From: a virus
Taxonomy: Duplodnaviria; Heunggongvirae; Uroviricota; Caudoviricetes
Reading direction: 5' to 3' (one strand)
Virus record (IMG/VR): IMGVR_UViG_648276647_000014
DNA: 10,410 nucleotides
The stretch's first letter is position 1; the number at the start of each line of letters is the position of its first letter. Below are positions 7,122 to 8,003 of this stretch, in pieces. The position numbers were made by a program, and so were the translations under genes. The notes beneath the pieces were generated by a model. The model was not told the origin of the DNA and did not search any database. It worked only from the letters and a program-made list of their open reading frames with translations.

Positions 7122-7209
7122 TAATCACACAGATAAAGTTACAAACTTCGGAGCAGCTCTGTGTGGCTGCGTTAATTTTGCTTTTTCTGCATTTGTGGTC
7201 AAGGTGATT

Positions 7210-7240
7210 GCGCATTATTGATTTGTTGTTTCGTAAAGAG
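7210..7240. repeat. Copy A of a bipartite ~30-bp motif (GCGCATTATTGA-N8-TTTCGTAAAGAG)
   Basis: Direct comparison with copies at 7441-7469 and 7756-7786. Confidence 0.5.
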
Positions 7241-7440
7241 TGTATTTTATTTAATACAAAAAAACGGCTTACAAAAAGGAAAGTTGCAAGCCGAAACACT
7301 CGTCGATTTATCCCAGAAAGAAACGCTCTGTGGGATAAATACAGAGCGCTCCTGTTCAAACAAAACCGAGAAGAGCAGCCCGGACGCGGTTCGTATGACC
7401 GGCTGTGTTTTGCCGTTATTGCATTGCTGGTCAACAGATG

Positions 7441-7469
7441 TGCATATTCTGGTTGGTGTTATTTCGTAA
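7441..7469. repeat. Copy B of the bipartite motif (TGCATATTCTGG-N8-ATTTCGTAA)
   Basis: 12/12 identity with copy C in the left half and 9/9 in the right half; spacer differs. Confidence 0.5.
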
Positions 7470-7550
7470 TTTGAAGTGTGGAGCCCGGGCTCAGAACGGA
7501 CAGCTAATGATGAGGGATGAATAAGCCGTTGTGAAGTGTTTTATATCGGT

Positions 7551-7594
7551 AAGAAAAAGCCCCGATTTACGTGAAGGAGGGCGTAAACCGGGGC
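7551..7594 (-). terminator. 13-bp-stem hairpin (one A.C mismatch) with T-rich run on the minus strand; minus-strand terminator candidate
   Basis: GCCCCGATTTACG / CGTAAACCGGGGC around a 10-nt loop (TGAAGGAGGG), preceded on the plus strand by AAGAAAAA. Confidence 0.4.
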
Positions 7595-7622
7595 GCTTAG
7601 TCGAGCTATCGAAAAAAAGAGC

Positions 7623-7656
7623 GAAACATCCCGCAGGGGACACTACAGGATGTTTC
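7623..7656. other. Hairpin with 9-bp stem GAAACATCC / GGATGTTTC and 16-nt loop
   Basis: Perfect inverted repeat; same architecture as 7087-7121. The 3' arm contains the ATG of the small ORF 7650-7838. Confidence 0.4.
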
Positions 7657-7755
7657 TCGTCACACGGCATTTGCAGCACAACGACGTTTCTGGAGTGTAC
7701 CGTGTGACTGTCAGTATTTATTTATTGCTTTTGATCTCCGGGCGATTAAGTGCTT

Positions 7756-7786
7756 TGCATATTCTGGCGGGACGATTTCGTAAAGA
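7756..7786. repeat. Copy C of the bipartite motif (TGCATATTCTGG-N6-GATTTCGTAAAGAGA)
   Basis: See copies A and B. A weaker fourth copy (GCGCATATTGAA...) lies at 7849-7862. Confidence 0.5.
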
Positions 7787-7788
7787 GA

Positions 7789-7827
7789 CGAAAACCGCGG
7801 TACGTGGTATGCAAGAATGTACCGCGG
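7789..7827 (-). terminator. 9-bp-stem hairpin (CCGCGGTAC / GTACCGCGG, 15-nt loop) with T-rich tail on the minus strand; candidate terminator for the downstream end of the 8004-8972 gene
   Basis: Perfect inverted repeat 7795-7803 / 7819-7827, preceded on the plus strand by GAGACGAAAA (minus strand reads TTTTCGTCTC after the stem). Confidence 0.35.
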
Positions 7828-8003
7828 CCGGCTGGTGAACTTTCGATAGTGCGCATATTGAATGATTTCCAGCCGTTACCGATTTTACGTGTTTATCAGT
7901 GAACAAACTACTCGTCAGCAGACTCCTTGGTATCTGATTTGATTATTCGTGCTCATCCTGAACTTCGGGCACACCATAAGTAAAATCAGTCACCCACAGC
8001 TGG

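Follow-up and report, generated by a model that had tools for sequence, protein, structure and literature searches.

The window analysed here is a 10,410-nt stretch of a Caudoviricetes record (IMGVR_UViG_648276647_000014), and the question that it raises is what, if anything, is encoded in the interval from the stop codon of a DUF1353 gene (7020) to that of a 322-aa minus-strand open reading frame (ORF; 8004), which contains a repeated bipartite motif and several hairpins. An earlier reading of this DNA, made from its letters alone (the sequence-only reading), had offered three options, i.e. a set of protein-binding sites such as operators or iterons, a structured non-coding RNA locus, or a regulatory region for the adjacent 322-aa cargo gene. 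The second option is favoured by our analysis on the basis of compensating changes in two helices across nine diverged repeat units, with the minus strand indicated by strand asymmetry and terminators. Whether these units are genuine small RNA (sRNA) genes, forming a rare family absent from Rfam and carrying the bipartite motif as an upstream control site, is to our judgement an even call. Nothing on this locus was found in the literature.

A tandem array of three diverged repeat units

The interval is non-coding. As the sequence-only reading had stated, it holds no convincing ORF (zero Pfam matches among its ORFs), and an Rfam 15 scan of 7021-8003 gave zero matches at the gathering threshold, the best E-value being 0.09. 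A protein-coding gene that has simply decayed here, which that reading had named among the outcomes that would overturn its interpretation, was rejected, since indels between the units are not multiples of three, Pfam matches are absent, and no ORF is kept over the nine units.

Three units of ~165-180 nt, designated U1, U2, and U3, are present in the window and share ~60% identity in alignment (Table 1). A repeat finder identified co-linear repeat families (D1, D5, and D6) at a spacing of 232-233 nt, in line with the motif and the hairpin. Global alignments of the unit pairs gave z = 9.0, 8.4, and 4.9 against dinucleotide shuffles, and none of 1000 shuffles scored as high. The unit-pair scores exceed those of every other stretch of the window, except for the weakest pair, U2-U3, whose score of 20.0 is below that of U3's best unrelated match (22.5). 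The pattern that had been noticed thus exists and is not random. Its start had been placed at 7205; the region there is indeed non-coding, but the real feature begins ~130 nt further to the left. Likewise, the motif and the hairpins had been listed as separate features and are all present, but they are the two ends of one unit. Both hairpins framed by GAAAC and GTTTC (hairpin 2 of U1 and of U3) are supported by inverted repeats and folds, and a third homologous hairpin of this type, that of U2 (inverted-repeat family I9), had been overlooked. CRISPR arrays consist of near-identical short repeats at a regular spacing with unique spacers between them; the units, being 165-180 nt long, ~60% identical, and spaced by 233 and ~303-315 bp, bear out the statement that this is not such an array.

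Read on the minus strand, the bipartite motif consists of block A (CTCTTTACGAAAT), 6-8 variable nucleotides, and block B (CCAGAATATGCA). It is the best-conserved short stretch of the unit: the two blocks are identical between U2 and U3 at 12/12 and 9/9 positions, and the spacer varies in both sequence and length. The block TGCATATTCTGG occurs exactly at 7441-7452 and 7756-7767 (family D7) and is followed by ATTTCGTAA 8 and 7 nt later, respectively, whereas the full bipartite pattern gave 0.00 matches in 200 shuffles. Of the three motif copies originally reported, those at ~7441 and ~7756 were thus recovered, and that at ~7210 is degenerate. The reported 'fourth copy' at ~7849 does not stand: it lies inside a hairpin of the dinI 3' untranslated region (UTR) that was found in all dinI loci examined, and it is motif-like only through two lineage-specific substitutions.

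Table 1. Features of the interval between the DUF1353 gene and the cargo ORF (positions in the window; a dot denotes no strand)
Feature	Position	Strand	Basis or remark
Bidirectional terminator hairpin 3' of the DUF1353 gene	7025-7054	.	I10; 10-nt arms, 100% complementary
U1	7075-7242	-	R1 151 bits; promoter scan; alignments A3, A6
U1 hairpin 2	7087-7121	-	
U1 hairpin 1	~7125-7167	-	
U1 promoter-like pair TTGACC-16-CAAAAT	7202-7175	-	
U1 degenerate motif GCGCATTATTGA...GTTTCGTAA	7208-7240		
Intrinsic terminator, stem CGGCTTGCAAC...TGTAAGCCG then T7	7258-7293	-	Sequence; fold of 7257-7400
U2	7308-7472	-	R1 142 bits; repeat and inverted-repeat families I9, D1, D5, D6
U2 hairpin 2	7319-7353	-	Followed by TTTCTTTCT
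U2 hairpin 1	~7355-7400	-	
U2 promoter-like pair TTGACC-16-CAAAAC	7434-7407	-	
U2 motif	7441-7469		
Palindrome GAGCCCGGGCTC	7481-7492	.	Where the U2 block meets its neighbour; GTTCTGGATTCAGAAC at this site in L247
Bidirectional terminator hairpin CCCCGATTTACG...CGTAAACCGGGG	7554-7600	.	L011 alignment; L247 sequence; gene tables
U3	7611-7790	-	R1 159.6 bits; terminator scan; folds z = -4.7 and -5.4
U3 hairpin 2	7623-7656	-	Followed, on the minus strand, by CTCTTTTTTT
U3 hairpin 1	7659-7708	-	
U3 -35-like hexamer TTAATC	7749-7744	-	
U3 motif	7756-7783		
dinI-type intrinsic terminator CCGCGGTAC...GTACCGCGG then TTTTCGTCTCTTT	7790-7827	-	
Conserved hairpin of the dinI 3' UTR (I2)	7829-7875	-	Holds the ~7849 'fourth motif'; in the dinI loci examined
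dinI 3'-end remnant ...DTKESADE*FVH*	7896-7935	-	In-frame stop; cut off at 7935; aligned to the intact dinI of L011
Fragment of ~25 codons, peptide HPDQLWVTDFTY	7943-8020	-	Between the dinI remnant and the stop of the 322-aa cargo ORF (8004)

Conserved helices and minus-strand signals

Two adjacent hairpins are predicted by RNAalifold. The covariation analysis on homologues proposed in the sequence-only reading was carried out on nine units, i.e. the three of the window and those from other prophages described below, and both helices stay paired: 93.3% of the cells are paired, compared with 31-53% when the 3' partners are slid by 1-3 columns, and 11 of the 23 pairs (32 cells) have changed on both sides. 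The observed covariation score was reached by none of 500 shuffles. Seven different stems are seen for hairpin 2, each of which pairs; hairpin 1, which has a loop of 25-45 nt and no T-run, shows double changes in 5 of its 10 pairs. Ahead of the hairpins lie ~85 nt of conserved unpaired sequence with promoter-like spacing, in which short blocks (TTRCGAAA, the GCA of block B, and TTGAYC) are fixed while their neighbours diverge to ~60% identity. Conserved UCC/UCCC motifs are found in both apical loops, and hairpin 1 has a CA-rich 5' arm (GUCACACGG...). In U2 alone, a second inverted repeat (ATTTATCCCAGAAAG / CTCTGTGGGATAAAT; I4, 7306-7340) allows the hairpin-2 loop to pair with adjacent downstream sequence, so that the predicted U2 RNA has an alternative fold.

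The strands are not equivalent. The non-Watson-Crick cells of six units comprise 13 G·U and 2 A·C when the minus strand is read; folds of this strand are more stable than those of the plus strand, with z = -4.7 and -2.3, respectively, for U3, and the predicted minus-strand RNAs have z = -3.4 to -7.3. T-runs follow the hairpins in the minus sense only. These data favour an RNA that is read from the minus strand.

Approximately 6 nt past block B on this strand is a TTGAYC hexamer, followed 16-17 nt further on by an A-rich hexamer (CAAAAT or GATAAA). The -35-like hexamer is kept in all nine units, and a sigma-70 scan of the minus strand independently calls TTGACC-16-CAAAAT in U1 and in V1 and V2 (two units of an E. 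coli chromosome, see below), each time at the corresponding position. U2 and the U3-type units have the -35-like hexamer with a weaker -10-like element lacking the final T. The motif itself was rejected as a sigma-70 core promoter, for which -35 and -10 hexamers with a 16-18-nt spacer, and a -10 hexamer with A at position 2 and T at position 6, were required: no site was called at the motif on either strand, and the best manual fit, TTTACG-17-TATGCA, lacks the final T and has an invariant GC inside the '-10'. A lambdoid nut site, in which a short boxB hairpin is preceded by a conserved boxA (GCUCUUUA), was also rejected, because block A reads CUCUUUA in U1, U3, L241, and the unit M605b introduced below, but CAAAUUA or CAACUUA in U2, V1, and V2, and no short hairpin follows it.

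Hairpin 2 of U3 is itself followed by T7 and is therefore its own terminator. Where hairpin 2 is not a terminator, a separate one is located 45-70 nt past it: for U2 the intrinsic terminator at 7258-7293, which is downstream of U2 and upstream of the U1 motif and recurs after V2, and for U1 the hairpin at 7025-7054. On the minus strand, the latter is followed by T6 (a plus-strand A-run at 7020-7025), with a terminator-like site at 7043-7031 and the tail GGGGCTTTTT, and it would end a U1 transcript. In total, 8 of the 9 units have a minus-strand hairpin with a T-run within ~70 nt, V1 being the weak exception. Since each unit is bracketed by minus-strand terminators, the layout is that of separate transcription units. 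The counterpart of the bidirectional hairpin at 7554-7600 follows an 88-aa tail-region gene in intact relatives, and 7493-7553 may be the remnant of the 3' end of that gene.

Relatives of the units and their genomic surroundings

A first covariance model, R1, was built from four units (U1, U2, U3, and the unit M605b), and loci fetched through homologues of the 88-aa gene and of a 358-aa gene were scored with it. M605b, which scores 162 bits, lies in contig L011 (= L152), a second prophage of the same genome, that of E. coli M605 (GCA_000176555.2); here the order is J, tail fibre gene, 358-aa gene, 88-aa gene, bidirectional terminator, one unit, dinI terminator, intact dinI, integrase gene, and dusA. 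Five further members were found, namely three tandem units (V1, V2, and V3; 134, 93, and 140 bits) in L247, which is E. coli chromosome OU349849.1, and one each in the metagenome contigs L243 (56 bits) and L241 (49 bits). All further members are situated directly after the 88-aa gene of a rare 358-aa/88-aa tail-gene pair. Matches to R1 were confined to the equivalent place in other prophages, and the concern, raised with the original observation, that the repeats might be absent from related prophages has been met with positive cases. Because L247 also carries a three-unit array, the tandem arrangement of three is recurrent and not an accident of the window.

The two arrays differ in make-up. 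The body of U2 is V1-like, whereas its motif and right flank are V2-like, and only the motif and terminator of a U1-type unit are found between V1 and V2. These differences between M605 and OU349849.1 fit unequal recombination between units. The perfect palindrome reported between U2 and U3 is present in the window; in the orthologous array of L247 it is not conserved, a different short inverted repeat taking its place.

Beyond these members, the family was not encountered. A second covariance model, R2, built from all nine units, found nothing more over ~400 kb of related prophage ends. The blastn comparison with prophage regions that had been suggested was made with 7021-7800; it covered 50,697 phage records, the complete genomes of 5,426 E. 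coli, and 72,556 plasmids, none of which matched. Among the IMG/VR loci searched, 80 with dinI and 24 with DUF1353, only L011 has a unit, and the homologues of the 358-aa gene in Salmonella, as well as more distant ones in E. coli, are not accompanied by a unit. Motif scans gave five chance matches in unrelated phyla when one genome per species was searched and L011 only among viral sequences; scans of viral contigs for the hairpin pattern returned 16 and 109 stretches, with BLAST likeness beyond the hairpin in L011 only among the loci compared; and a scan of viral and metagenome contigs for a conserved 25-mer returned L011 and one chance match inside an ORF only. The motif, which the sequence-only reading had suggested looking for elsewhere, is absent outside the units in 260 loci.

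Comparison of the units with 4,227 Rfam families revealed no sequence or structure match even at E <= 10, and no antitoxin RNA family of Rfam matches the unit region. The Rfam/Infernal scan that had been proposed likewise placed no known family there; the best weak match, to CssrB, covers 7686-7826 on the plus strand with 21 bits (E = 0.09), compared with a gathering score of 76 bits. CssrB (RF02799) is a ~180-nt sRNA of Shigella flexneri encoded between SF2021 and SF2022 (PMC3071730). The same model scores 30 bits in L247 and 30-33 bits, through the terminator hairpin only, at dinI loci that have no unit. Its 3' hairpin matches the dinI-type terminator hairpin, and the matching strand is opposite to that favoured for the unit. 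An identity with CssrB was therefore rejected: the score is below the gathering score, and the match reflects the shared dinI terminator hairpin at 7790-7827, not homology to the units.

To the right of U3, the segment 7791-7935 matches the 3' part of the dinI locus of many E. coli prophages (final codons, 3' UTR, and terminator) at ~89% identity. It is followed by a fragment whose peptide resembles the integrase-core motif of IS3-family transposases. An ALIL pseudoknot, the frameshift element of IS3-family elements, is located at 9639-9755 (plus strand, 109 bits), and an IS110-family transposase gene occupies 2280-3530 on the minus strand; together with the fragment at 7943-8020, these show heavy insertion sequence (IS) traffic in the prophage remnant. 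The 322-aa cargo ORF (8004-8972, minus strand) is an AT-rich orphan, for which neither Pfam nor PHROG has a family and tblastn against the 50,697 phage records gave nothing; only four homologue clusters (99, 84, 58, and 44% identity) were found among 5.8 billion proteins. A regulatory role of the interval for this gene, which had been one of the options, is contradicted by its position: the interval lies downstream of the minus-strand gene, with the remnants of dinI and of the IS3-type gene between them, and so cannot be its promoter region. In addition, the units are present in three other loci without the cargo gene.

To the left of the array, a group II intron is located at 4899-6672 on the plus strand (Rfam D1-D4 at 4899-5185 and domain V/VI at 6600-6672), and its protein is split into two ORFs (RVT_1, 5231-6211; maturase domain, 6190-6576). 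The intron end falls inside the listed DUF1353 ORF (GTG start at 6628), whose homologues match from residue 20 only; the 5' end of this tail-assembly gene is therefore where the intron seems to be situated.

Several observations concern the relatives. In L247, the segments 5867-5955 and 6086-8080 represent a prophage end beside pphA-like ORFs, DUF1482, DUF1480, and rsmF, and the junction gives sub-threshold matches to SraC/RyeA and SdsR/RyeB; the prophage thus seems to be inserted at the ryeA/sdsR small-RNA locus. In L244 3626-6159 (E. coli M605, scaffold GL883931.1), the integrase gene is directly beside dusA, and this arrangement suggests a dusA-targeting prophage with its integrase and tail genes at the same end. 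A LexA-box-like sequence is present upstream of dinI in the intact relative (L011 ~10575-10600). In L137 and L138, which represent common E. coli prophages, a full-length match to Rfam IS009 (RF02111; 199-220 bits) is found at 1908-2106 on the minus strand, just beyond the terminator of dinI, which is on the plus strand. The dinI-distal end of lambdoid prophages thus hosts other annotated RNA candidates.

Candidate small-RNA genes and competing explanations

If the units are sRNA genes, the array would consist of three small transcription units, paralogous to one another and encoded, like dinI, by the minus strand, and each unit would be a non-coding 'moron' that a lambdoid prophage carries at its right end. 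From 5' to 3' on this strand, a unit would comprise the terminator of its upstream neighbour, the bipartite motif, the -35/-10-like pair, hairpin 1, hairpin 2 (2 nt later), and its terminator. Transcription would be driven by the promoter-like hexamers and start just before hairpin 1, yielding a predicted RNA of ~90-150 nt. The centre of the motif would then precede the predicted start by ~45-75 nt, a distance at which activators or repressors typically bind, and for this reason we read the motif as a putative upstream control site of that kind and not as a core promoter. The RNA may act in trans: given the UCC loop motifs and the CA-rich arm of hairpin 1, it might, by analogy, occlude G-rich ribosome-binding sites or sponge the GU-rich seeds of core sRNAs such as GcvB.

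Prophage morons that encode sRNAs are known in E. coli, e.g. DicF (Qin), IpeX (DLP12), and AgvB and AsxR (enterohaemorrhagic E. coli prophages), and AgvB acts as a sponge for core sRNAs such as GcvB. The units resemble sRNAs of the DicF, IpeX, and AgvB type in being short non-coding entities in a lambdoid accessory region, with promoter-like hexamers, stable hairpins, and a U-tailed terminator, independent of the neighbouring ORFs; they differ in forming a tandem array of three diverged copies with a conserved bipartite motif upstream. Several points weigh against interpreting them as sRNA genes. The -10-like elements of the U3-type units (GATAAA, AATAAA, and GATAAC) lack the canonical final T, and in no unit does a promoter that passes the scan coincide with a T-run immediately behind hairpin 2. 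Fitting alignments A5 and A7 to the structure of the model inflates the percentage of paired cells, and the nine units come from four sources and fall into approximately three related groups, so that there are fewer covariation events than the cell counts suggest. Compensating changes are, moreover, expected in plain terminators too. Finally, with the family absent from the 5,426 complete E. coli genomes and the other loci searched, selection for a host-relevant function is not evident.

The main rival is an inert module, in which the units are merely the non-coding tail of the late region, a group of terminators and hairpins where the tail operon and dinI converge, copied by recombination between related prophages and serving only termination or insulation. 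We regard this as rather unlikely, although it would account for the rarity of the family and for the decay around the locus in a heavily decayed prophage (IS110 transposase gene, group II intron, dinI remnant, and IS fragment); the different arrays of M605 and OU349849.1 would fit unequal crossing-over, and the T-run after hairpin 2 comes and goes between units. As in clusters of intrinsic terminators between convergent operons, the units are flanked by the tail operon's end on one side and by the convergent dinI on the other, with hairpin-plus-T-run terminators within or after them. Unlike in such clusters, hairpin 1 and most copies of hairpin 2 have no T-runs and are nevertheless structurally conserved, and ~85 nt of conserved unpaired sequence precede them. 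Hairpin 1, in particular, is not terminator-like and yet has its double changes, TTRCGAAA, the GCA of block B, and TTGAYC are fixed amid neighbours of ~60% identity, and each unit already has a separate terminator downstream. A role in cis, that of a dinI 3' UTR extension reached only by read-through of the dinI terminator and serving as a processing or stability element or as back-up terminators, appears very improbable. U3, M605b, V3, and the units of L241 and L243 do directly follow a dinI-type terminator in the same orientation, and in the unit-less L197 group, too, the dinI terminator is followed by the initial half of block A (CTCTTTACGA); however, U1, U2, V1, and V2 are not beside dinI, L247 and L241 have no dinI gene and keep their units, and a strong terminator precedes each internal unit.

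The conservation of the motif, whose two blocks flank a variable spacer and fit no sigma-70 pair on either strand by manual inspection or scanner, could instead point to protein binding at the DNA level (an operator, an iteron-like element, or a recombinase arm-type site) with the hairpins incidental. To this, the sequence-only reading's first option, we assign little probability. A short motif occurring three times within ~0.6 kb is shared with iteron and operator arrays, from which the locus differs in that the motif is a segment of a longer repeat, lacks dyad symmetry, is irregularly spaced (231 and 315 bp), and has no replication or regulator gene adjacent. With one motif per ~170-nt unit, none outside the units, and no visible dyad symmetry or helical phasing, an iteron or operator array was rejected. 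In the intact relative L244, where int is beside dusA, the two motif halves are confined to the unit and do not recur around the integrase gene and the attachment site, and an arm-type or attachment site was rejected. The motif is also located downstream, not upstream, of the neighbouring genes, and the covarying helices and the one-strand G·U bias would be left unexplained. The motif could still be an upstream regulatory site for the promoter of each unit. Quite improbable, too, is a type I toxin-antitoxin-like system in which the plus strand encodes a tiny hydrophobic peptide ending at the TAA of ATTTCGTAA (U2: MTGCVLPLLHCWSTDVHILVGVIS) and the minus-strand RNA is the antitoxin. It is suggested by tandem repeats beside an SOS gene and by a closed ORF of 24-27 codons in the same frame, ending at the motif TAA, in U2, V1, V2, and L241. 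In tandem type I repeats, such as the Ibs/Sib 'QUAD' repeats and the Ldr/Rdl long direct repeats, direct repeats of a few hundred base pairs likewise each specify a structured small RNA, and here, too, some copies carry a hydrophobic ORF of 24-27 codons on the opposite strand; the units differ from these in that the ORF is intact in 4/9, with no coding-type substitution and no toxin-family match. The ORF is broken or frame-shifted in U1, U3, V3, L243, and M605b, the last of which sits in a prophage with intact dinI and integrase genes. By manual count, the differences among U2, V1, and V2 comprise 0-3 synonymous and 7-8 non-synonymous codons; where stretches are invariant, all three codon positions are fixed, and these stretches overlie the -35/-10 hexamers of the other strand; no Shine-Dalgarno sequence is found at a usable distance; Pfam and NCBIfam gave zero matches even at E = 10; and the L241 peptide is basic, not hydrophobic. 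A combined version, i.e. a new tandem prophage module of the type I kind with a minus-strand structured RNA, a 24-aa hydrophobic plus-strand peptide in the intact copies, and the motif as an operator coupling the copies, also seems improbable.

The practical weight of the sRNA interpretation is limited, with the family found in a handful of genomes and no tie to the orphan cargo gene or to a phenotype. If transcribed, however, the units would represent an undescribed family of prophage-borne sRNAs, adding to the few phage-encoded riboregulators known in E. coli. The array would also be an unusual one, consisting of three diverged copies, apparently reshuffled between strains through recombination, that each carry the same upstream motif, and it would provide a clean system for studying how sRNA genes duplicate and diverge.

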